Shown here piece after piece: positions 50,843-62,504 of a DNA stretch of 64,000 bases (positions are counted from its first letter, which is position 1; each line of letters begins with the position of its first letter). The notes under the pieces were generated by a model that was not told the DNA's origin, ran no database searches, and worked only from the letters and a program-made list of their open reading frames with translations. The stretch is from Burkholderiales bacterium (GTDB taxonomy: Bacteria > Pseudomonadota > Gammaproteobacteria > Burkholderiales > JACQAP01): positions 635 to 64,634 of the forward strand of contig JBJXFN010000155.1 of NCBI GenBank assembly GCA_046155535.1, in the 5' to 3' direction. The translations under genes and the position numbers were made by a program.

Positions 50843-50974
50843 TCGGCGGATAAGGCACGAACAACGCCCCGTCCGGCAGCGCCGTGTGGCGGTGGCGTTG
50901 TCGGTAGCAACGGAAATGGAAACGGAAATAAGACCGATCATCCCGACATCGGAAATTTGCGATCAAGAGAAACC

Positions 50975-52114
50975 ATGCAAACCATCAACATAGACGAATT
51001 GCGCGACCGTGCGCGCCGCCGGCTTCCCCGGGTCATTTTTGAGTTCATCGACGGTGGCTCTCAGGATGAAACGACATTGCGCGCCAACCGCGAAGATTTC
51101 ACTAGGTGGCGATTTGTCACCCGGACACTCACCGACGTGACCCAACGCGATCAGTCGATCAGCCTGTTCGGACAGCGATACGCATCCCCCCTGATCATTG
51201 CGCCCACCGGGTTGACGGGCCTGTCTTCCCGACGTGGGGAACTGGCCGTGGTCCGGGCCGCGGAAAAATTTCAGCTGCCCTACTGCCTGTCTACGATGGC
51301 CACTTGCAGCATCGAGGAAGTGACCCGGGAAACCCCGCAACCGAAGTGGTTCCAGCTGTATGTTCTGCGCGACCGGGGCCTCACCCGGGCATTCATCGAT
51401 CGCGCCAAGGCCTCGCGCTGTTCGGCACTCGTACTGACCGTGGACACCAAGATTCAGGGTCCGCGCGAGCGCGACATGCGCAATGGATTTACCGTTCCGC
51501 CAAGATTTTCGCCTGCCACCATTTTCGATTTCGCGCGCCACATATCCTGGCTTTTGGACGTGGGGCTGGGGCCGCGAATCGCGTTCAAGAATTTTGAAAA
51601 TACCCCCGCCGGCGCCACCGATGCGATGACCATCACTCAGTTCATAGCCGGTCAATACGATTTGAGCGTGAACTGGAAGGATGTCGAGTGGTTCAAGTCG
51701 GTTTGGGGCGGGCCGCTGCTGCTCAAGGGCATCCTCAACCCGGAAGACGCAAAACTTGCCATTGCCCACGGGGCGGACGGCGTGATTGTCTCGAATCATG
51801 GCGGTCGGCAACTCGACGGGGCTGTTTCCGCCATCCAGGCATTGCCGGCCATCGCAGAAGCAGTTGGCGATCAGATCGAAGTGGTTCTCGATGGCGGCAT
51901 CCGGCGTGGCGCCGACGTGGTGCGGGCGCGCGCACTCGGCGCCAAGGCCTGCATGGTGGGACGGGCTTGGTTGTATGGCCTCGCGGCAGAAGGGCAGTCC
52001 GGTGTGGAACGCGCGCTGGAAATACTCCGCAACGAAATCGATGCCACGCTGACATTGCTCGGCCACCCGAATTTTTCGCAAATCGATCGCCGGGTACTGG
52101 TCGAAAGGCTGTAG
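50975..52114 (+). CDS. FMN-dependent alpha-hydroxy-acid dehydrogenase/oxidase (LldD/glycolate-oxidase family)
   Basis: ATG at 50975. Motifs are FEFIDGGSQDE, WFQLYV, LTVDT, KGIL, VSNHGGRQLD and DGGIRRGADV. Confidence 0.9.
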   Translation: MQTINIDELRDRARRRLPRVIFEFIDGGSQDETTLRANREDFTRWRFVTRTLTDVTQRDQSISLFGQRYASPLIIAPTGLTGLSSRRGELAVVRAAEKFQLPYCLSTMATCSIEEVTRETPQPKWFQLYVLRDRGLTRAFIDRAKASRCSALVLTVDTKIQGPRERDMRNGFTVPPRFSPATIFDFARHISWLLDVGLGPRIAFKNFENTPAGATDAMTITQFIAGQYDLSVNWKDVEWFKSVWGGPLLLKGILNPEDAKLAIAHGADGVIVSNHGGRQLDGAVSAIQALPAIAEAVGDQIEVVLDGGIRRGADVVRARALGAKACMVGRAWLYGLAAEGQSGVERALEILRNEIDATLTLLGHPNFSQIDRRVLVERL

Positions 52115-52146
52115 GGTTTGCCTACGCCCGGCACCTGCGGAGTTCT

Positions 52147-52422
52147 TTATTTCACCGTATCGATGATCTCGATTTCCGTGCCACGGGTACCGACGCTGAC
52201 CACCGCGCTGCTGCTGGTCAAGTCGCCCGGCATGAGCGTGGTCTTTCCGTTGCGGGATATGCAGGCAAACACAATCATCCATTTTGCATTATCGCCGGCA
52301 CGATTTCGAAGGCCGACGCGGACTCCACCCGGAATTTCGGTATATTTGCACTTGCGAAACTCATCCGACCTTGGCGGACAAACATGGCATCCCGATTCAG
52401 CATCAAATATTTTGCCTCCCAC
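52147..52422 (-). CDS. hypothetical small protein (weak; start uncertain)
   Basis: 91-aa ORF with a GTG start. Its C-terminal half looks protein-like (MIVFACISRNGKTTLMPGDLTSSSAVVSVGTRGTEIEIIDTVK). Its 5' end overlaps the start of the 52384 gene on the other strand, so the true start, if the gene is real, is probably internal. Confidence 0.25.
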   Translation of the reverse strand: MGGKIFDAESGCHVCPPRSDEFRKCKYTEIPGGVRVGLRNRAGDNAKWMIVFACISRNGKTTLMPGDLTSSSAVVSVGTRGTEIEIIDTVK

Positions 52423-52704
52423 GACGCGCTCGGCATGGTGTCAGAAGAGGAATACCAGCGATTCAAGGAAGAACTGCTCGAAGCCATTCAAGATGAATGG
52501 CCGGATGCGGCGGTTTCCATCGACGACGATGAAGAGGCCTATGCGGATATCAGCGGACTGAGTGGCCAGGCAGAAAAGGACGTGCATGACCGGCTGGAGG
52601 ATATCGTCAGCGAAGTCATCGACTCAGGAAACTGGCAGGAAGAAGAAGAAGAGTTCTACGAAGAGGAAGAAGAGTCCGGAATCGAAGGCGAAGAGGATCG
52701 CTGA
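52384..52704 (+). CDS. highly acidic hypothetical protein
   Basis: 106 aa with consistent coding-like codon usage and a poly-E tail (NWQEEEEEFYEEEEESGIEGEEDR). I recognise no family. Confidence 0.55.
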   Translation: MASRFSIKYFASHDALGMVSEEEYQRFKEELLEAIQDEWPDAAVSIDDDEEAYADISGLSGQAEKDVHDRLEDIVSEVIDSGNWQEEEEEFYEEEEESGIEGEEDR

Positions 52705-52726
52705 TTGCGCGTCTGATTCCTGTAAT

Positions 52727-52790
52727 TGGTAAGCCTGGTTGGAATCTAACCAACGACCGATTGATCGTGAGACCGAAGCTCGGGAAAAAC
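52727..52790 (-). repeat. decayed direct copy of the 3' part of the tRNA-Ile(CAU) gene (att-like island boundary)
   Basis: Hand alignment of 52727 onward (TGGTAAGCCTGGTTGGAATCTAACCAACGACCGATTGATC) against 60363 onward (TGGTGGGCCTGGTTGGGATCGAACCAACGACCAAAGGATT) gives 28/32 identities over the first 32 nt and 32/40 over 40 nt, in the same orientation. Confidence 0.6.
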
Positions 52791-53272
52791 AAGAACTCTG
52801 GGGAATAAACGAGCACACCACTAACTGGTGAAGCGGTGTTCAAGATTCTCAGCGACTCCTACCAGTTCCAGATTTTCCTCGATGAGTGTGATAACAGTGT
52901 GCCGGGGTGCCGGGCCATTTGAGTCTAGGCCATAGCGCGACTCGCGTTGACGCCCAGACTTACTCCTAATTTCCCGCGCGTTGACCAATTTCACAGCGTA
53001 GAAAAAGCGCTCCCGCTTTGCCCTGGGCGCCTCGTCCGCACCCGCCCACCCACTTGTCCTCGCGCCCCGAGCAGCCTTCGCGACTGCTTATCGAGCCCCA
53101 TCCGACCCCCTCCGGCCCTCACTAGAGTCCTCCCGCCGGGCGTGGTACAGATCAATTTCTCTCCTTCCATATTTAGTCCATAAAAACATTAGTCTATTTG
53201 TTATTTTTGAAAACCTTAGAGTAAGTTCACCCGGATATCCATCGACCCCATAACAAATAAGTTGTGTTTCTT

Positions 53273-53324
53273 GTCTCCGTTTGGAGACAATGCTGTTATC
53301 CTACCGTCTCCGTTTGGAGACAAT
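53273..53324. promoter_or_regulatory. two identical 19-nt copies of a palindromic site GTCTCCGTTTGGAGACAAT, 33 bp apart
   Basis: Copy 1 is at 53273-53291 and copy 2 at 53306-53324. Each contains the inverted repeat GTCTCC-GTTT-GGAGAC (extended to TTGTCTCC/GGAGACAA in copy 1). They lie about 205-255 bp upstream of the island operon. Confidence 0.4.
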
Positions 53325-53529
53325 TGGTAAGGGCCAAATAAGAGCCAACAAGCAGTCATAAGCAGTCAAGAAAGCTAAAAAAAGGATTTCGCTGAAGCTC
53401 AGTAATTGTTTGACGACGTGGGGGCATTGCGAGCATCGCTCATAAAGTTGGTGCTGGAACGACAAAAATTCTCGCGGGCACTGCACATGATGCGTGTTTG
53501 GTAGTGGTTTTAGAAATGGGAGGAAGGCG

Positions 53530-53931
53530 ATGAGCGAATCAAGGGCACTCTATCGTGCTTCTCGCAAGGAAGTCGCGAGCAGAAGGTCGGTGAACGCAAC
53601 ATTACTTCGCGCACATTTACCTGATCGTTCGTCTGATGGCACGCACAACGTGCCGTTCCTCACATTCTTCGAAGATGCACGCAGACCTGCAGTTATGCAT
53701 GCAGCCCATGTACCGCGTTTTTCTCTCTCCACGACAACATTGGCCGTGAACGATAACGAGGGGGCATCGCTTGGCCCGATTAGGGTGTTACGGCAGCTCA
53801 ACGGAGAAAAGTCGACATCCTCATTGCAAAGCAACCGCTGGGGCGCGACCAAAAAAGCAGGATTAAAAAAGTTTGGCGGGAAATTTGGACACAAACGTAT
53901 TGAACCAATTTCAGGGGTGCAGCAGCGATGA
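53530..53931 (+). CDS. hypothetical protein, first ORF of the island operon
   Basis: The ATG at 53530 is preceded by GGGAGGAAGG, and the stop overlaps the start of the giant gene (ATGA at 53928-53931). 133 aa, basic, with no motif I recognise. It appears less GC-rich than the downstream genes. Confidence 0.4.
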   Translation: MSESRALYRASRKEVASRRSVNATLLRAHLPDRSSDGTHNVPFLTFFEDARRPAVMHAAHVPRFSLSTTTLAVNDNEGASLGPIRVLRQLNGEKSTSSLQSNRWGATKKAGLKKFGGKFGHKRIEPISGVQQR

Positions 53932-56900
53932 TCGACTCACATGATTTCTATCGTTCTAAACCGGACCATCAGCCGCACCAAATGGCAGACAGGGTTACTG
54001 CAGCGAGCGACTCGGGGTTGAAGGCGCGCAGAAATTTGCCTGTGCTGAACTCGACCACCCGGCTGTTGAGCGTTGTGTTGGCAGGCATCGTTGCCTCCGG
54101 GTGCGGTGGTGGCAACGAGCCTGACCCATCCCAGGCCGCCGATGCGCAGCACGTGGGCGCGATCTCGGCGCTGGCGATCGCCGCGCCGTCGCAATCGGTC
54201 TGGTCGCCGCGCTACACGCTGCCGCTGGTGCCCACCACCGCGGCCAACCTGCCCGACGGCAAAGTGCTGGTCTGGTCGGCGGAGGAGCGCTTTTCCTTCG
54301 GCGCCAATGTCGGCCGCACCTACACCGCCACCTTCGACCCGGCCACCGGCACGAGCACTGAACGCACCGTCACCGAGAGCGGGCACAACATGTTCTGCCC
54401 GGGCACCACCAACCTCGCCGACGGCCGCCTGCTCGTCAACGGCGGCATCAGCAGCGCACGCACCAGTATCTTCGATCCCGCCGCCGGTACCTGGACCAGC
54501 GCGGCCAACATGAACATCGCACGCGGCTACAACGCCAACACAATCCTGGCCGACGGCTCGGTGTTCACGCTCGGCGGCTCATGGAGCGGTGGTGTCGGCA
54601 ACAAGCACGGCGAAATCTGGACCGAAGCCGGTGGCTGGCGCCGCATGAGCGGCATCCCGATCGACTCGATGCTATCCGTGGACACGAGCCGCAATTTCGG
54701 CGGCGACAGCCACTTCTGGTTGATCCCCACCGGCCATGGCCGCGTGCTGCACGCCGGCCCCGGTGTCAAAATGCACCTGATTGACACGCGCGGCAACGGC
54801 GCCGTGCAGCCGATGGGACTGCGCGGCGACGATCAGTTCAGCGTGAGCGGCACCGCAGTGATGTACGACATCGGCAAGGTGCTCAAGATCGGCGGAACGC
54901 CCGGCTACGAGGGATTCGACGCCAACGCCAACGCCTACGTCATCGACATGGGTGCCGGCGGCGTTGCGGTGCGCAAGCTCGCGCCGATGAACTACGCGCG
55001 CGTGTTCCACAACACCGTGGTGCTGCCCAACGGCCAGGTCGTGATCATCGGTGGCCAGACGCGTGCCAACGCCTTCACCGACAACCGCTCGGTGCTGGCC
55101 GCCGAGCTGTTCGATCCGGTCACGGAAACCTTCACCGTGCTGCCGGCGATGACAGTGCCCCGTAACTACCACAGCTCGGCACTGCTGCTGCCCGACGCGC
55201 GTGTGATGTCCACCGGTGGCGGGTTGTGCGGGGCAGGCTGCGCCGCGAACCACCCGGACGTCGAGATTCTGTCGCCGCATTACCTCTTTAACCCCGATGG
55301 CACACCGGCCACGCGCCCGGCACTCACCGCCGCGCCGACGCAGGCTGCGCACGGCACGTCGATGACAGTGGCGACCAATTCGCCGGTCACCGCGTTCTCG
55401 CTCGTGCGCATGAGCTCGACGACGCACACCGTCAACAACGACCAGCGCCGCATTCCGTTGGTGTTCAGCACCACCGGCCCCAATACCTACTCGGTGCAGG
55501 TGCCGAGCAACACCGGCGTTGCCCTGCCCGGCCTGTACATGCTGTTCGCGATGAATGGCGACGGCGTACCCTCGGTCGCGCGCATCGTTCGCATCGGCTC
55601 GACCAACACGCCGAAGCTGGTGTGGCCGGGCGACCAGAACACGACTGTCGGCGGCGCCGTCGCGCTGACGCTGGCCGCACCCGGCGCAGCGAGTTTCAAC
55701 GCCAGCGACCTTCCGCCGGGCTTGAGCTTGAACACCGCCACCGGCGAGATCAGCGGCACGACCACGGGCGAGGGGCTGTACGACGTCACCGTCTCGGCGA
55801 GCAACGCCAGCGGCACCGTCAGCACGCAAATGCTGTGGCGCGTGACACAACCGGGCAACCCGCGCTTCGTACGGCTCGAGTCGCTGTCCGAGGTCAACGG
55901 CCAGCCCTGGGCGTCGATGGCCGAGTTCAACCTGCTCGACGACAACGACAACACGCTACCGCGCACGGGTTGGGTGGCCAGCGCCGACAGTGCCGAGTTG
56001 GTCGGCCAGAACGGCGCCGCGGTCAATGCGCTCGACGGCAACGTCGCGACGATCTGGCACACGCAGTGGCAGGCCGCGAGCCCACCGCATCCGCACTGGT
56101 TCAGCGTCGACATGGGAGGAACCGCGCGCCTGGGCGGCTTCCGCTACACGCCGCGCACCGACTCGCCCAACGGCGCGATCGCGCTGTTCCGTTTCTACGT
56201 CTCTACCGACGGCATCAACTGGGGCTCGCCGGTGGCCACCGGCGACTTCCGCACGATGGGCGCCACCGCCGCCGAGAAAACCGTGCGATTCTCGCTCGCG
56301 CTGCCCAACCGCGCGCCGTCGATCGCCACGCCAGTCGCGCAGTCGAGCACGCAGGGCCAGGCCCTCACCCTTGCGCTGCAGGCCAGCGACCCGGACGGCG
56401 ACGCGCTGAACTGGAGCGCCAACGGCCTTCCGCCGGGCCTTTCGTTGGGCATCGGCAACGGCATGGTCAGCGGCACGCCGACGACCAGCGGTAACTTCAA
56501 CGTCAGCGTCACGGTGCAGGACAGCCGAGGCGCCAGCGCCAGCACGAACTTCGTCTGGACCGTGCTCGCTGCACCGACCGTCATCAACCCGGTACCGGTG
56601 GCACCTGCCACGACCGGCAGCGACGTGACATTTACGGCGAGTGCCACAGGCAGCCTGCTCGAGTACGCTTGGGATTTCGGTGACGGCACGCAGGTCACGC
56701 CGTACTCGTCGTCGCCGACGGCTTCACATCGCTACGTCGACCCGGGCCTGTACAACGTAACGCTGAATGTACGCGCCAGCGACGGCCGCATCACGAGCAT
56801 GGTGTTCGCCCAGGCGATCACCAGCGGGGTGACCGCCATGCAGCCAGTCGCCTCATCCAACATCGTTCTTGAGCCGCGCAGCGGCTCCAACGCGCAGCTG

Positions 56901-59147
56901 TGGGTCGCCAACCCGGACAACGACACGGTCAGCGTCTTCGACGCGGTAACCAACGCCAAGCTGGCGGAGATCGCCGTCGGCGTCGGGCCGCGCACGCTGG
57001 CGGTCGGCGCCGCCAGAGTCTGGGTGGCCAACCGCGACGGTGCGAGCCTGAGCGTCATCGACACAACGTCGCTCGCGGTAACGCAGACGATCGCGCTGCC
57101 CCGTGCATCGATGCCCTACGGCATTGCGTTCTCGCCGGCCGACGGCTCGGCCTGGGTCGCTCTCGAAGCTACCGGCCAACTGCTGCGACTGAGCGCGGCT
57201 GGCGCCGTCACCGGCACGGTTGCAGTCGGCCCGAACCCGCGGCAGGTGTCGATCAGCGGCGACGGCGCGCGCGTGCTTGTCTCGCGCTTTGTCACGCCGC
57301 CGCTGCCGGGTGAAGCCACGGCGGCAGTGCTGACCGCGGGTCGCGGCGGCGAGGTGGTGGTGGTCGACGCGGTCACGCTCGCGCCACTGACCACGACAAT
57401 GCTGGCGCACAGCAACAAGCCCGACAATACGATCCAGGGCCGCGGCGTGCCGAACTACCTCGGCGCGGCGGTGATCTCGCCCGACGGCGCATCGGCCTGG
57501 GTACCGTCGAAACAGGACAACGTGCTGCGCGGCACGCTGCGCGACGGGCAGAACCTCGACTTCCAGAACACGGTGCGCGCGATCAGCTCGCGCATCAACC
57601 TGGCGACGCTGACCGAAGACCAGCCCGCGCGCATCGACCACGACAACGCCAGCGTCGCCAGCGCAGCGGTCTTCCACCCGAGCGGCGCCTACCTGTTCGT
57701 CGCTCTGGAGACGAGCCGCCAGGTGGCGGTGGTCGACGCTTACGGGCGGCGCGAGGTGATGCGCTTCGATGCCGGTCGCGCCCCACAAGGCGTCGCAGTG
57801 TCGGCCGACGGCCTGCGCCTCTACGTCAGCAACTTCATGGACCGCAGTGTCACGGTGCACGACTTGTCTCGCCTGGTGCAGTTCGGTGAGTTCAACGTGC
57901 CGCTTGTGACAACGCTTGGCTCAGTGGCTAACGAGCGTCTCACGGCGCAGGTGCTGTTGGGCAAGCGCCAGTTCTACGACGCACGCGACCCGCGCCTTGC
58001 GCGCGACAGCTACATGAGCTGCGCCTCCTGCCACCGCGACGGCGGCAGTGACGGCCGGGTCTGGGACCTCACCGGCTTGGGCGAAGGCCTGCGCAACACG
58101 ATCGAGTTGCGCGGTCGCGCCGCGATGGGCCACGGCCCCCTGCATTGGAGCGGCAACTTCGACGAGTTGCAGGACTTCGAGGGCCAGATCCGCGCACTGG
58201 CGCAGGGCACCGGCCTGATGACGGATGCGCAATTCAACACCGGCACACGCAATCAGCCGCTCGGCGACCGCAAGGCGGGTGTCAGCGCTGACCTCGACGC
58301 GCTGGCGGCGTATGTGGCATCGCTGTCAAGCTTCGCGCCGAGCCCGTTGCGCAATCCTGACGGCACGCTGACGACCGGCGCGGCGGCAGGCCGAACGGTC
58401 TTCGCTGCGCAATGCGCCTCCTGCCACTCGGGCAGCACGTTCACCAACAGCACGCTCGGCGCGCTACCGAACATCGGTACGCTCAAGGCCTCGTCGGGCA
58501 TGCGCCTGGGTGGCACGCTCGCCGGCATCGACCCGCCGACGCTGCGGGACGCCTGGCAGACCGCGCCCTATCTGCACGATGGCTCGGCCGCAACGATTAG
58601 CGCTGCGATCGCTGCGCACAATAACGTCGCTCTCAGTGCGACGCAGCTGGCGCAGGTTGCGGAGTTTGTCATGCAGATCGGCAGCGAGGAACCTGCGGTG
58701 GCCTCAACAGCCAGCGGCGGGCTGGCCGGCAGCTACTTCAACAACCTCACGCTAGCCGGCACGCCAGCAATGGCTCGCATCGAGGTCGTGGACTTCGGCT
58801 GGGGCTCGGGCTCGCCCGGTATCGGCGTCGGCACCAACAACTTCTCGGCGCGCTGGACCGGCGGCGTGATGGCCACTACCACCGGCGCCTACCGCTTCCG
58901 CACCATCAGCGACGACGGCGTGCGCCTGTGGGTCAACGGCGTGCAGGTCATCAACAACTGGACCGACCACGGGGCCACGACCAACACGTCGGGCACGGTC
59001 AACCTCGTCGCCGGCCAGCGCTACGACATCCGGCTCGAGTACTACGAACGCAGTGGCAAGGCCGTTATGCGGCTGCTCTGGCAAGCGCCGGCCAGCGCCA
59101 CCTATGTCACGATTCCCGGTACCGCTCTGTTCCCGGCGCCACCATGA
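53928..59147 (+). CDS. 1739-aa multidomain lipoprotein: galactose-oxidase-type Cu-radical oxidase + Ig-like/F5-8C/PKD modules + YVTN beta-propeller + di-haem cytochrome c peroxidase domain + PA14
   Basis: Uninterrupted ORF with a lipobox VASGC (Cys59). The alternative start M19 is at 53982. It carries galactose oxidase cofactor and ligand motifs (NMFCPG, ARGY, HFWL, NYHS, STTHTVNNDQRRIPL), two CASCH haem motifs (58020 and about 58413), TAPYLHDGS, and a PA14-like C-terminus (FSARWTG...YRFRT.SDDGVRLWVNG...). Domain map is in the findings. Confidence 0.9.
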   Translation: MIDSHDFYRSKPDHQPHQMADRVTAASDSGLKARRNLPVLNSTTRLLSVVLAGIVASGCGGGNEPDPSQAADAQHVGAISALAIAAPSQSVWSPRYTLPLVPTTAANLPDGKVLVWSAEERFSFGANVGRTYTATFDPATGTSTERTVTESGHNMFCPGTTNLADGRLLVNGGISSARTSIFDPAAGTWTSAANMNIARGYNANTILADGSVFTLGGSWSGGVGNKHGEIWTEAGGWRRMSGIPIDSMLSVDTSRNFGGDSHFWLIPTGHGRVLHAGPGVKMHLIDTRGNGAVQPMGLRGDDQFSVSGTAVMYDIGKVLKIGGTPGYEGFDANANAYVIDMGAGGVAVRKLAPMNYARVFHNTVVLPNGQVVIIGGQTRANAFTDNRSVLAAELFDPVTETFTVLPAMTVPRNYHSSALLLPDARVMSTGGGLCGAGCAANHPDVEILSPHYLFNPDGTPATRPALTAAPTQAAHGTSMTVATNSPVTAFSLVRMSSTTHTVNNDQRRIPLVFSTTGPNTYSVQVPSNTGVALPGLYMLFAMNGDGVPSVARIVRIGSTNTPKLVWPGDQNTTVGGAVALTLAAPGAASFNASDLPPGLSLNTATGEISGTTTGEGLYDVTVSASNASGTVSTQMLWRVTQPGNPRFVRLESLSEVNGQPWASMAEFNLLDDNDNTLPRTGWVASADSAELVGQNGAAVNALDGNVATIWHTQWQAASPPHPHWFSVDMGGTARLGGFRYTPRTDSPNGAIALFRFYVSTDGINWGSPVATGDFRTMGATAAEKTVRFSLALPNRAPSIATPVAQSSTQGQALTLALQASDPDGDALNWSANGLPPGLSLGIGNGMVSGTPTTSGNFNVSVTVQDSRGASASTNFVWTVLAAPTVINPVPVAPATTGSDVTFTASATGSLLEYAWDFGDGTQVTPYSSSPTASHRYVDPGLYNVTLNVRASDGRITSMVFAQAITSGVTAMQPVASSNIVLEPRSGSNAQLWVANPDNDTVSVFDAVTNAKLAEIAVGVGPRTLAVGAARVWVANRDGASLSVIDTTSLAVTQTIALPRASMPYGIAFSPADGSAWVALEATGQLLRLSAAGAVTGTVAVGPNPRQVSISGDGARVLVSRFVTPPLPGEATAAVLTAGRGGEVVVVDAVTLAPLTTTMLAHSNKPDNTIQGRGVPNYLGAAVISPDGASAWVPSKQDNVLRGTLRDGQNLDFQNTVRAISSRINLATLTEDQPARIDHDNASVASAAVFHPSGAYLFVALETSRQVAVVDAYGRREVMRFDAGRAPQGVAVSADGLRLYVSNFMDRSVTVHDLSRLVQFGEFNVPLVTTLGSVANERLTAQVLLGKRQFYDARDPRLARDSYMSCASCHRDGGSDGRVWDLTGLGEGLRNTIELRGRAAMGHGPLHWSGNFDELQDFEGQIRALAQGTGLMTDAQFNTGTRNQPLGDRKAGVSADLDALAAYVASLSSFAPSPLRNPDGTLTTGAAAGRTVFAAQCASCHSGSTFTNSTLGALPNIGTLKASSGMRLGGTLAGIDPPTLRDAWQTAPYLHDGSAATISAAIAAHNNVALSATQLAQVAEFVMQIGSEEPAVASTASGGLAGSYFNNLTLAGTPAMARIEVVDFGWGSGSPGIGVGTNNFSARWTGGVMATTTGAYRFRTISDDGVRLWVNGVQVINNWTDHGATTNTSGTVNLVAGQRYDIRLEYYERSGKAVMRLLWQAPASATYVTIPGTALFPAPP

Positions 59148-59566
59148 GCAGGCGCGGTTGCGTGCTGGCGCTGGTGGCCGTCGCTGCAGGCGCAGCCGAC
59201 GCAGCCAGCCCGCCCAGTGCGGAGCGTGGCCGCCGGCTGTTCGTCGGCGAGGCAACGCTATCCGCGCGCATCGTCGGTCAGGACTTCGTGTTGCCGGCGC
59301 AGGCCAACCGCTGCATCAACTGCCACGGGCCGGCGGCGGCAACGGCCGGCGCATCGGCAACGGCAGCGCCGCCACTTTCGGCAACGACGCTGGCGCAACC
59401 ACGGCGGCGCCGCGGCGGACCGCCGTCGCGTTACGACACGGCCACGCTGTGCACGCTGCTGCGAAGTGGCGTCGATCCGGCCCATGTGATGATCGACCGC
59501 ACCATGCCGCGCTATGAAATCACCGATGATGAGTGCCGTTCGTTGTGGCTGCATCTGAACCGATGA
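59144..59566 (+). CDS. periplasmic monohaem c-type cytochrome-like protein
   Basis: The ATG at 59144 overlaps the giant gene's stop (ATGA). It has a signal peptide (MSRRGCVLALVAVAAGAADA) and a single CxxCH (CINCH). Confidence 0.65.
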   Translation: MSRRGCVLALVAVAAGAADAASPPSAERGRRLFVGEATLSARIVGQDFVLPAQANRCINCHGPAAATAGASATAAPPLSATTLAQPRRRRGGPPSRYDTATLCTLLRSGVDPAHVMIDRTMPRYEITDDECRSLWLHLNR

Positions 59567-60141
59567 ACACACGACGCAGATTGCTCACCCTGCTCGCGTC
59601 CCTATTTACGCCGCACGCAATGGCGCAGACCGCGGCCACGCCATCGCACGAGCCGTTTGGCCCCGTGCGACCGCCGCTGCCCGCGCCGAAGCTGACGCTA
59701 ACCGGCGAGGACGACCGACGCTTCGAACTCGGCGCTCGCCTGCGCGGCCGCATCAGCGCTGTGCAGTTGATGTTCACCGGCTGCAGCGCCACCTGTCCGA
59801 TCCAAGGTGCGCTGTTCGGCGCGCTGGCGCCGTTGGTAGCAGACCATGCAGAGTGGCAGCTGCTCTCGCTGAGCATCGATCCGCTCGGCGACAGCCCGCG
59901 GGCACTGCGTACCTGGCGCGCGCGCTTCGCAACGAATGCCAACTGGCTTGCCGCAGTACCGCGTGTCGAGGAGGTTGATCGGCTGCTCGACTTTCTGCGA
60001 GGCCGCGCCCAGGGCGCGGACCGGCACACCGCGCAGATCTACCTGTTCGACCGTCAGGCACGACTCGCCTACCGCACTGCGGACATGCCGCCGGCGCGTT
60101 TCGTTGCCGATCTGATGAACGAACTTTCGCAGCTGCGCTGA
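59563..60141 (+). CDS. SCO1/SenC-family copper chaperone / thiol-disulfide protein
   Basis: The ATG at 59563 overlaps the upstream stop (ATGA). It has a twin-Arg-containing N-terminus (MNTRRRLLTLLASLF), the thioredoxin-fold motif FTGCSATCP (CxxxC) and a distal His (DRHTAQIYLFD). Confidence 0.85.
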   Translation: MNTRRRLLTLLASLFTPHAMAQTAATPSHEPFGPVRPPLPAPKLTLTGEDDRRFELGARLRGRISAVQLMFTGCSATCPIQGALFGALAPLVADHAEWQLLSLSIDPLGDSPRALRTWRARFATNANWLAAVPRVEEVDRLLDFLRGRAQGADRHTAQIYLFDRQARLAYRTADMPPARFVADLMNELSQLR

Positions 60142-60362
60142 CTCAGGCAGAAGAAGGCACCGCGATAGATGTCGAGCTCGACACCGTCGGCGGCATCCTC
60201 GGGCACTCACAACCCCGCGCACGCAGTGGTACGCCACCTGCACACCGCGACCCTGCAAAAAGCCGTGCGGAAGACCCGGTGACACGAGGCACACGCAAGC
60301 GACTGACTACACGCACATGACACCGGACGTCAGCGCGTCGAAATGATGAGTCATTGATTTAG

Positions 60363-60439
60363 TGGTGGGCCTGGTTGGGATCGAACCAACGACCAAAGGA
60401 TTATGAGTCCTCTGCTCTAACCGGCTGAGCTACAGGCCC
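60363..60439 (-). tRNA. tRNA with CAU anticodon, most likely tRNA-Ile2 (lysidine-modified)
   Basis: The reverse complement GGGCCTGTAGCTCAGCCGGTTAGAGCAGAGGACTCATAATCCTTTGGTCGTTGGTTCGATCCCAACCAGGCCCACCA folds by hand into a cloverleaf: 7-bp acceptor, GCTC/GAGC D stem, GAGGA/TCCTT anticodon stem, CTCATAA loop, GTTGG/CCAAC T stem, encoded CCA. It has C4-G69 and C5-G68, and its variable/T region resembles E. coli ileX more than elongator tRNA-Met. Confidence 0.85.
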
Positions 60440-60460
60440 GTTTCAAAACCGTTGCAGCAC

Positions 60461-60496
60461 AAAAAATGGCCGGGTCTCTACCCGGCCATTTTATTT
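60461..60496 (-). terminator. intrinsic terminator after rpoD (bidirectional-looking)
   Basis: 11-bp stem AATGGCCGGGT (60465-60475) / ACCCGGCCATT (60480-60490) with loop CTCT. It is flanked by an A run (T6 on the minus strand) and TTTATTT on the plus strand, and lies 28 nt downstream of the rpoD stop. Confidence 0.7.
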
Positions 60497-60517
60497 CCTC
60501 TCACTGGCAATTGCCGA

Positions 60518-62422
60518 TCAATTGTTGTCCAGAAAACTGCGCAGCCGCTCGGAACGCGAGGGATGGCGCAACTTGCGCAAGGCCTTGGCTTCGATCTGGC
60601 GGATGCGCTCGCGAGTAACGTCGAACTGCTTGCCGACTTCTTCCAGGGTGTGGTCGGTATTCATTTCGATGCCGAATCGCATGCGCAGCACCTTGGCTTC
60701 GCGCGGCGTCAGCGTATCCAGCACTTCCTTGGTGGCATCGCGCAGGCTCGTGTACACCGCCGCGTCCGAGGGCGCCATGGTGGCCTGATCCTCAATGAAA
60801 TCGCCAAGATGGGAATCGTCGTCGTCGCCGATCGGCGTTTCCATGGAAATCGGTTCCTTGGAGATTTTCAGAATCTTGCGGATTTTTTCTTCCGGCATCT
60901 CCATTTTTTCCGCCAGCGTCGAGGGATCGGGCTCCTGCCCGGTTTCCTGCAGAATCTGGCGCGAGATCCGGTTCATCTTGTTGATGGTTTCGATCATGTG
61001 TACCGGAATGCGAATTGTGCGCGCCTGATCGGCGATGGAACGGGTGATCGCCTGACGGATCCACCACGTCGCATAAGTCGAGAATTTGTAGCCGCGGCGG
61101 TATTCGAATTTGTCCACCGCCTTCATCAGCCCGATGTTGCCTTCCTGAATCAGATCGAGGAACTGCAGGCCGCGGTTGGTGTATTTCTTGGCGATGGAAA
61201 TCACCAGTCGCAAATTGGCTTCGGTCATTTCGCGCTTGGCACGCCGGGCCTTGGCTTCGCCCGTGGACATCTGGCGGTTGATTTCCTTCAGGTCCCGGAC
61301 CGGAATGCCCACGCGTTTCTGCAGATCGATGAGGGATTGCTGCTGTTCCAGAATGGCGGGCGCAAACCGCGTCAACACTTCGCTGTAGGGCTTGCGTGAC
61401 TGCGCTTCGCGGCCGACCCAGTGCAGGTCTTCTTCGTTGCCCGGGAAGGTCTTGATGAAATAGATCCGCGGCATGGCGGCCTTCTCCACGCACAACTCCA
61501 TGATCGCGCGCTCATAGGTGCGCACCTCTTCCACCAGTCCGCGCAGACCATCACACAAGGCCTCAACCTGCTTGGCGGCGAATCGGATCAGCATCAGCTC
61601 CTTAGAAATTTCTTCCTGGGCCTTGAGGTAGGAGCGACTGCGCGAACCATTTTTCGCCAGCGTCTTCATCATTTTGTTGTACAGCACGCGAATGCGGGCA
61701 AAGCGCTCCAGGGCGTCGGCCTTCAACCTGAGCATGTTGGCGTTCTGCACCGCGGCGCCGTCATCATCCTCGCCTTCTTCGGTGTCCAGTTCGCCTTCCA
61801 GCTCTTCTTCCGGAATTTCCTCAGCAATGGCTTCTTCCGGCGCATTGGGGTCGATCACGCCGTCCACCACTTCGTCGATACGCATTTCCTCGCGTTCGAT
61901 TTTCTCCGCGAACTGCAAAATGTCCTGGATCGTGGTCGGGCAGGCGGCAATCGCCATGATCATGTGCTTGAGCCCGTCCTCAATGCGTTTGGCGATTTCG
62001 ATTTCGCCTTCGCGGGTCAGCAATTCCACCGAGCCCATCTCGCGCATGTACATGCGGACCGGATCGGTGGTGCGACCAAATTCGGAATCCACCGTGGACA
62101 AGGCCTGTTCGGCCTCTTCGACCACGTCTTCGTCCGGCGCGACAGCAGGCGTGGCCTCGTTCATCAACAAGGTCTCGGCATCCGGGGCCTCGTCATAGAC
62201 CTGGATGCCCATGTCGTTGATCATGCTGATGATGTTCTCGATCTGCTCGGCATCCAACATGTCGTCGGGCAGATGATCGTTGATCTCGGCGTAGGTCAGA
62301 TAACCGCGTTCCTTGCCGAGCACGATCAGATTCTTCAGCCGCATGCGCCGTGCTTCGGCGTCGATTGGCTGCTGGGCCGCTACCTGCTCCTTGATCTGAT
62401 CCTTGCGCTTTTCCCTTGCCAT
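60518..62422 (-). CDS. rpoD: RNA polymerase primary sigma factor sigma-70
   Basis: ATG at 62422 ([13 protein letters not shown]...). Regions 1.1-4.2 are present, including the acidic spacer, [57 protein letters not shown] (region 2) and [28 protein letters not shown] (region 4.2). Confidence 0.95.
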
Positions 62423-62504
62423 GGGTTTTTTTCCCTTGAAAACAATTACCTGAGGTGCGGCCGCCAAAAAGAACCGCGCATTATACCGGAGTCACTCCCC
62501 ACTT

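Follow-up and report, generated by a model that had tools for sequence, protein, structure and literature searches.

A probable degraded tRNA-borne genomic island with a probably foreign oxidase-peroxidase operon, in tRNA-Ile(CAU) next to rpoD of a Burkholderiales bacterium

Contig JBJXFN010000155.1 of a Burkholderiales bacterium (assembly GCA_046155535.1) was analyzed over a stretch of 64,000 nucleotides (positions 635 to 64,634 of the forward strand), which makes up nearly all of a 65.8-kb contig of a metagenome-assembled genome (MAG) and is hereafter called the window. A segment of 7,636 bp within it is very probably a degraded tRNA-borne genomic island (7.6 kb), located in the tRNA-Ile(CAU) gene next to rpoD. 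The segment is an insertion relative to the empty sites of related genomes; the tRNA's 3' end is duplicated at its borders, its composition is foreign, its largest gene nests among homologs from a donor-like lineage, and detectable mobility genes are absent from it. Two tRNA-derived sequences bracket the island:

60363-60439, minus strand: intact tRNA-Ile(CAU) gene, ileX-like, called by ARAGORN with anticodon CAT, directly downstream of rpoD

52727-52781, minus strand: decayed duplicate of the tRNA-Ile(CAU) 3' 55 nt, reaching from the CCA end into the 3' strand of the D-stem

The intact gene is the only tRNA, with anticodon CAT, that ARAGORN found in the whole window. The program labels it Met, its default for CAT; the top full-length match in E. 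coli (84%) is annotated as tRNA-Ile in RefSeq, and the identification as tRNA-Ile(CAU), already made in an earlier note on this DNA, therefore stands. The base pairs C4:G69 and C5:G68 can be read in the acceptor stem; we take them to be determinants for TilS, as in the lysidine-modified tRNA-Ile2. With a CAU anticodon on what appears to be a tRNA-Ile2 body and not a tRNA-Met body, the gene fits the tRNA-Ile2 (CAU) class.

The fragment starts exactly at the tRNA 3' end (TGGT, corresponding to ACCA) and has the same orientation as the tRNA; over an ungapped alignment that extends from 52727 to 52781, 42 of 55 positions (76%) are identical. The hand-aligned counts of the earlier note, 28 of the first 32 and 32 of the first 40 positions, were reproduced. 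In local alignment the repeat scored 29; when 60 dinucleotide-shuffled tRNAs were aligned against both strands of the whole window as a null, the best scores averaged 13.8±1.1 and never exceeded 17, and an independent repeat search recovered the same pair (family D2) at a spacing of 7,636 bp. Identity is uneven along the fragment, with 28 matches in the 32 positions of the outer part and 14 in the 23 positions of the inner part. The copy lies in an intergenic stretch without Pfam domain, is not called as a tRNA by ARAGORN or Rfam, and no longer folds as one.

The host sequence on both sides of the island provides the anchors for a comparison with related genomes:

52384-52704, plus strand: gene of an acidic protein (106 aa), left anchor, conserved in the clade

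52705-52726, no strand: 22-nt spacer between the stop codon of the acidic gene and the fragment; in relatives, 20-26 nt precede an intact tRNA

60456-60499, minus strand: terminator hairpin of rpoD, between the tRNA and rpoD

60518-62467, minus strand: rpoD, right anchor, identified by Pfam and followed by dnaG

Only a narrow clade has homologs of the acidic protein, 28 proteins at E<=0.001 when the query itself is counted. A scan of genome contigs with the single acidic protein as query gave no match, and a query built from an alignment succeeded; context look-ups and this alignment-based scan of GTDB genomes yielded 32 relative loci (MAGs), recorded as Burkholderiales or Betaproteobacteria bacterium and representing an uncultured Burkholderiales clade. 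Where their contigs reach, the gene order is sulfatase, FMN-dehydrogenase, acidic protein, tRNA(CAT), rpoD, and dnaG. Loci L004, L007, and L028 (also L005) share 94.5% amino acid identity with the window in rpoD and 77% in the acidic protein; the acidic proteins of L039 and L040 are 79% and 81% identical to that of the window. An acidic-protein gene followed directly by the tRNA, the empty arrangement to be looked for on the earlier note's account, was found, with the tRNA 3' end at the following distances from the stop codon of the acidic gene:

L004, L005, L007, and L028: 22 nt

L039: 25 nt

L040: 20 nt

L013, L016, L017, L018, and L020 (second subclade): 25-26 nt

The empty site is documented in 11 loci (20-26 nt), including the five that are closest by acidic-protein identity. 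The fragment in the window begins 22 nt past the acidic stop codon, which is the orthologous position of the relatives' tRNA. In blastn comparisons, positions 52330-52774 of the window are colinear with positions 9946-10391 of L004, running through the acidic gene and the spacer and taking in 48 nt of the relatives' tRNA; the same tRNA of those relatives also aligns with the intact copy in the window and with the terminator upstream of it. One ancestral tRNA corresponds to two pieces of the window that are 7,636 bp apart, which argues for an insertion within the tRNA gene with duplication of its 3' part. In other relatives, 50-5,039 nt of host-like GC content separate the acidic gene from the tRNA; none of those with a longer gap contains the tRNA-fragment repeat (best score 10 or less). 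Since they show neither the repeat nor an unusual GC content, the scar is specific to the window.

The interval between acidic gene and tRNA is, in its own right, a variable spot in the clade (L008, L009, L019, L023, L025, L029, L031, L035). In most of these eight loci the interval amounts to 1.3-5.0 kb and encodes a PhyH-like dioxygenase together with a small membrane protein and a HAD hydrolase, in some cases along with additional genes; these open reading frames (ORFs) were named by eye and from precomputed Pfam calls (L008/L009). L019 and L031 contain other ORFs in this interval, and in another five loci it consists of 50-710 nt of DNA with no assignment. Locus L028 (CAMDKM010000026.1) is labeled as a MAG of "Bordetella parapertussis"; its layout and its identities to the window are those of L004, and the label is probably wrong. 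To the left of the acidic gene, two overlapping ORFs occupy opposite strands of the window, at 50957-52114 (plus, 385 aa) and 50963-52282 (minus, 439 aa). The plus-strand ORF is 70-82% identical over its full length to the FMN-dependent dehydrogenase gene identified by precomputed Pfam calls in L008/L009, and this homology marks it as a real gene; the minus-strand ORF, which has no family, is probably spurious.

Five features were distinguished within the island:

52782-54041, no strand: island DNA left of the operon (1.26 kb, 51% GC), with a C-rich stretch, an AT-rich trough, and an orphan ORF

54042-59147, plus strand: cargo gene 1, giant lipoprotein of 1701 aa, with GTG start codon and a signal peptide that ends in ...VASGC

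59144-59566, plus strand: cargo gene 2, secreted, cytochrome c-like protein of 140 aa with a CxxCH motif (CINCH)

59563-60141, plus strand: cargo gene 3, SCO1/SenC copper chaperone (Pfam PF02630)

60142-60362, no strand: spacer separating the operon from the tRNA 3' end (221 bp, 61% GC), joined to SCO1 and the tRNA 3' end in contigs of two metagenome runs (X1 and X2, see below)

The sharp change in composition that the earlier note had described from hand-counted lines was recovered as a step in windowed GC content and in GC3, the GC content of third codon positions. The operon (54042-60141) has a GC content of 0.682 versus 0.597 in the host; values outside the segment are 0.58-0.60. The giant gene has a GC3 of 0.87, versus 0.699±0.033 and a maximum of 0.76 in 31 host ORFs (z about 5); the GC step is therefore not an amino-acid effect. 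The two small cargo genes, with a GC3 of about 0.76, are at the top of the host range. Left of the operon, GC content is 0.513 (52782-54041), and the AT-rich arm that had been noticed near position 53161 corresponds to a trough of 0.42 at 53151-53529; the right-hand spacer (60142-60362) has a GC content of 0.611.

The giant protein contains, in this order, Pfam domains of a galactose-oxidase-type copper-radical oxidase (galactose/glyoxal-oxidase kelch), GO E-set, He_PIG, F5/8-C, a further He_PIG, PKD, a YVTN propeller, a diheme cytochrome c peroxidase (CCP_MauG), and PA14; its N-terminal part matches galactose oxidases in the PDB at E 1e-166. The GTG at 54042 is more likely to be its start codon than the ATG at 53928, and its database entry has the same length of 1701 aa. 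The second cargo gene product has no match in Pfam or NCBIfam; counterparts of the same length follow the giant gene in loci L001-L003 of the donor-like lineage, and the counterpart in L010 has 117 aa. It is 64-67% identical to its homologs in this lineage at the amino acid level (dN/dS 0.2-0.3). For SCO1 (dN/dS about 0.2), the ATG at 59563 is a more likely start codon than the GTG upstream at 59533. Both junctions within the operon are ATGA start/stop overlaps (59142-59150; 59561-59568). All three cargo genes are intact, and dN/dS values of 0.2-0.3 relative to four donor-lineage copies indicate that the cargo is under purifying selection. GC3 in the window is slightly lower than in the donor-like copies for each gene in turn (0.87 versus 0.88-0.94; 0.77 versus 0.79-0.88; 0.76 versus 0.81-0.92), which is compatible with partial amelioration.

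The origin of the operon was traced through the giant protein, which had 2606 matches at E<=0.001 among 8000 candidates scored. Named matches belong to Burkholderiales (Methylibium, Rubrivivax, Rivibacter, Variovorax, Rhodoferax) and to one member of the Polyangiaceae; the closest homologs, with 73-81% amino acid identity, come from MAGs and metagenomes, and among these P0002, P0010, and P0011 share 77-81%. All four contexts that were fetched (P0002, P0005, P0010, P0011) contain the same three genes with no tRNA nearby, in a neighborhood of uvrD, the operon, patatin, PAS-GGDEF-EAL, an IMPDH-like protein, and an S41 peptidase; valyl-tRNA synthetase follows next in L001-L003, and the contig of L010 ends before this position. 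Locus L001 has a GC content of 0.69 throughout, so that the operon is compositionally native there. In blastn, the window and L001 share 81% nucleotide identity over 6.1 kb, from 54046 to 60141; nucleotide homology with the donor loci is bounded by the gene boundaries of the operon itself, and its right end coincides with the SCO1 stop codon. In a maximum-likelihood tree, the window protein nests with P0010, P0002, P0003, P0004, and P0005 (SH-aLRT 99), and the sister subclade contains P0011, which is also found in the uvrD/patatin context. The same context in the nest and in its sister indicates that the uvrD/patatin locus is ancestral for this clade and that the window copy has been displaced. 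Judged from these sequences, it is largely supported that the operon came from a donor-like lineage with about 69% GC, in which it would be a stable chromosomal locus between uvrD and patatin; the horizontal gain from a GC-richer donor that the earlier note had proposed is borne out by these homologs and by the position of the window copy in the tree.

The remaining DNA of the island is of a different kind. Neither the 1.26-kb nor the 221-bp segment matches anything in the donor loci, in plasmids, in the relatives of the host, or elsewhere in the window, and no Rfam family was found in them; the 221-bp spacer is presumed to be element DNA beside the regenerated tRNA. The ORF at 53530-53931 has no homolog but itself and no family in Pfam, PHROGs, or NCBIfam, and is probably not a gene. 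Two identical 19-mers, GTCTCCGTTTGGAGACAAT, are located at 53273-53291 and 53306-53324, 33 bp apart from start to start; each contains a 6-4-6 dyad, and the pair, upstream of the operon, may be an operator. A scan for promoters and terminators upstream of the operon found none. The sole other exact match of the 19-mer in metagenome contigs is a single intergenic copy in L038 (701-719). This copy adjoins the 3' end of a gene that was read by eye as a sigma-54-type activator.

The continuity of the assembly was checked in the four biofilter-metagenome runs that contain the region, by examining the Logan contigs of each run. A single X1 contig of 2.6 kb spans positions 52000-54318, with the acidic gene, the fragment, the 51% GC DNA, and the start of the giant gene; another X1 contig, at positions 59340-60412, takes in the cytochrome c gene and SCO1 as well as the spacer and a portion of the tRNA. 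The right junction is covered wholly or in part by contigs of X2 and X3; in X2, coverage extends from SCO1 across the spacer into the tRNA 3' end. Depth is uniform, at about 6-9x. The joint of positions 52727 and 60363 that would mark an excised or island-free form occurs in no Logan contig of the four runs; such contigs can miss rare variants. The contigs break in the 5' half of the tRNA, which is shared by co-occurring relatives; the link between tRNA and rpoD therefore rests on the original assembly and on the universal synteny of the clade. X1 may be the source sample and is, for this reason, not independent evidence.

The following course of events would best account for the segment. An integrative element whose attachment (att) site contained a copy of the 3' part of tRNA-Ile(CAU) would have undergone site-specific recombination with the tRNA-Ile(CAU) gene that the host has downstream of rpoD, presumably by means of a tyrosine integrase. 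This event would have regenerated an intact tRNA beside rpoD (60363-60439) and pushed the original tRNA 3' end 7,636 bp away, to its place 22 nt past the acidic gene, where it would have decayed to 76% identity. The cargo would be the translationally coupled three-gene operon at 54042-60141; the integrase and other element functions would since have gone, and the island would now be fixed. An integrase-mediated mechanism, a single event, and the later loss of mobility genes are the parts of this scenario that we infer.

Several results weigh against this reading or limit it. In the island, no integrase, excisionase, transfer gene, phage gene, or remnant of any of these was detected. Phage_integrase had no match in any ORF or reading frame of the island, and a Pfam scan of nine stop-masked frames (six of the 1.34 kb left of the operon, three of the 221 bp to its right) gave no match to any Pfam family; phage structural, conjugation, and relaxase genes were likewise absent from empty Pfam and PHROGs scans, and the island contains only the three cargo genes and the orphan ORF. 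Since mobility genes went undetected, the integrase step is read from the scar alone, and their earlier loss would follow from the scar together with this absence. Of the tRNA-targeting integrative element stripped of its mobility genes that the earlier note had envisaged, the scar and the empty site were found; an integrase or a remnant was not detectable, and the loss remains the conjectural part. Furthermore, the donor loci and the window share no housekeeping ortholog that could be used in an incongruence test; the only match is a MoxR paralog at 42%. The island is also a mosaic of 51%, 68%, and 61% GC, of which only the 68% part (54042-60141) matches the donor lineage; the operon and the att scar therefore need not share one event.

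Two stretches that had been considered as putative integrase remnants, at 52824-53087 (minus strand) and at 60132-60317 (plus strand, with a frameshift), resemble box II by eye (RHT...L..V..L.H and LGHS...R.LH), a likeness that was not confirmed. They matched nothing in Pfam, PHROGs, and NCBIfam at E<=10, nothing in a phmmer search of the PDB, and nothing in an exhaustive phmmer search of 1.84 billion representative proteins; in tblastn against phages, the only match was a replisome organizer at E=9.

The tRNA sequences themselves add a further complication. The 5' 48 nt of the tRNA are common to 21 relatives except for the D loop and, in L019, position 6, and T stems vary among lineages through compensatory changes (GAAGG, GCTGG, GTCGG, GTGGG, CCTGG, GATGG, and others). 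The T loop TTCGATC of the window is unique compared to these relatives; both copies in the window share the T stem GTTGG/CCAAC, a loop containing GAT, and A67, a T arm that occurs in none of the 21. The T arm of the fragment is closer to the window's present tRNA than to the T arm of the nearest relatives; given the shared T arm and the uneven identity, neither the crossover point nor the host-derived copy can be assigned. The T arm could be either the lineage's own earlier type or one supplied by the element.

The mosaic composition invites a two-step history, which we regard as unlikely: an older, unrelated element would have left the tRNA duplication and the scraps of 51% and 61% GC, and the operon would have recombined into this scar later. 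Three compositional blocks (0.51, 0.68, and 0.61 GC) and donor homology that stops exactly at the gene boundaries of the operon fit such a history, as does a fragment that has diverged by 24% while the GC3 of the giant gene, at 0.87, is still near the 0.88-0.94 of the donors; in addition, the interval between acidic gene and tRNA varies across the clade even without att scars. Yet there is no second set of repeats and no junction signature of a later insertion, mosaic composition is common inside single islands, and the segments have no independent dating. The undetected integrase could also be taken to mean that none was involved, and that incoming DNA with a tRNA-Ile-like sequence was inserted by illegitimate or homology-assisted recombination, or that a local duplication was followed by insertion. 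This is improbable, given that the duplicate is a tDNA end fragment on the correct side and in the correct orientation, reaching from the anticodon-arm region to the CCA end; this layout is the specific signature of tDNA-targeting integrases (PMC4383910), and in E. coli a P2-like prophage occupies the corresponding position beside tRNA-Ile(CAU).

An artifact of metagenome assembly, in which 69% GC DNA was misjoined into a 60% GC contig at a conserved tRNA, would have to be considered because the window comes from a MAG contig of 65.8 kb and the Logan contigs break in the tRNA 5' half common to co-occurring relatives; we rate its probability as very low. Host sequence is found on both sides of the foreign block; at the left junction the DNA is unique and non-repeated, and one 2.6-kb contig reads across it; the right junction is spanned in X1 and X2, and depth is even at about 6-9x. 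Moreover, the donor flanks uvrD and patatin are absent, 1.5 kb of the segment match neither source, and a degenerate fragment cannot cause a k-mer misjoin. Equally implausible is the view that the segment is the ancestral state here and that every sampled relative has lost it by deletion. The varying length of the acidic-to-tRNA interval across the clade could be cited for it, but it requires many independent, precise deletions, each of which would have left one tRNA at a distance of 20-26 nt from the acidic gene, and leaves the duplicated tRNA 3' end, the GC3 outlier, and the nesting among genes of another context unexplained.

The degraded tRNA-borne island that we favor can be compared with several known types of elements. 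In tDNA islands as defined for Islander, a regenerated tRNA gene and a displaced 3' end fragment of the same orientation enclose the island (Hudson, Lau & Williams 2015; PMC4383910). The segment in the window correspondingly has a full-length tRNA at one end and the cognate 3' fragment downstream at the other, in the same orientation; its 7,636 bp are within the range of 2-200 kb, the fragment lies outside coding domains, the composition of the cargo is foreign, and the repeat, which extends over 55 nt between the CCA end and the anticodon arm, fits the "anticodon-centred" att class (PMC4383910). The integrase ORF that the algorithm requires was not found in the island, whose fragment stands at 76% identity, and the algorithm would reject it; every other feature that Islander uses is present. 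By a comparative definition, the segment is a horizontally acquired island, with an empty site, foreign composition, and nested phylogeny.

Anchored or degenerate islands have lost their integrase and perfect repeats, and consist of foreign cargo beside a tRNA that is fixed and kept by selection. The island in the window is alike in its fixed foreign cargo beside a tRNA and unlike them in its surviving att scar, its many documented empty sites, and boundaries that are known to the base. The cis-mobilizable elements (CIMEs) of Streptococcus thermophilus have att-type repeats and no integrase or transfer genes, and their att sites are functional and can be used by a related integrative and conjugative element (ICE). 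The segment in the window is likewise flanked by repeats, with no integrase or transfer genes detected; in contrast, its far repeat has 13 mismatches in 55 positions, the Logan contigs of the four runs contain no excision joint, and a partner ICE is not known. It is very improbable that the island is still mobilizable in trans, the decayed repeat being used as att site by an integrase whose gene lies at another place in the genome or on an element resident in the same cell; if it were so, the 19-bp dyads would be sites for a recombination-directionality or regulatory protein, and the module of oxidase-peroxidase, cytochrome c, and SCO1 would still be moving between Burkholderiales via tRNA-Ile(CAU). 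Finally, in E. coli NZ_LR025101.1 (L037, 4001-8076), P2-like prophage genes (an ogr-like regulator, late control D, tail, and tape measure) lie directly 3' of tRNA-Ile(CAU) beside glaH; tRNA species and side are the same as for the island in the window, which is without recognizable tail or late-control genes. This tRNA species therefore adjoins an integrated element elsewhere as well.

As an example of gene gain via a tRNA-targeted island, the case is clear-cut but unremarkable; the mechanism is already well known from textbooks, and the cargo protein is more unusual than the type of island. It documents, exact to the base, how an uncultured Burkholderiales bacterium from a biofilter acquired an entire extracellular redox module, predicted to comprise a galactose-oxidase-type oxidase fused to a diheme peroxidase, a cytochrome c-like partner, and a copper chaperone. 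The widespread operon of the giant protein can move as a three-gene unit, and this clade has an integration site at tRNA-Ile(CAU), downstream of rpoD. In annotation, the operon is to be regarded as accessory and not as part of the core metabolism of the host.

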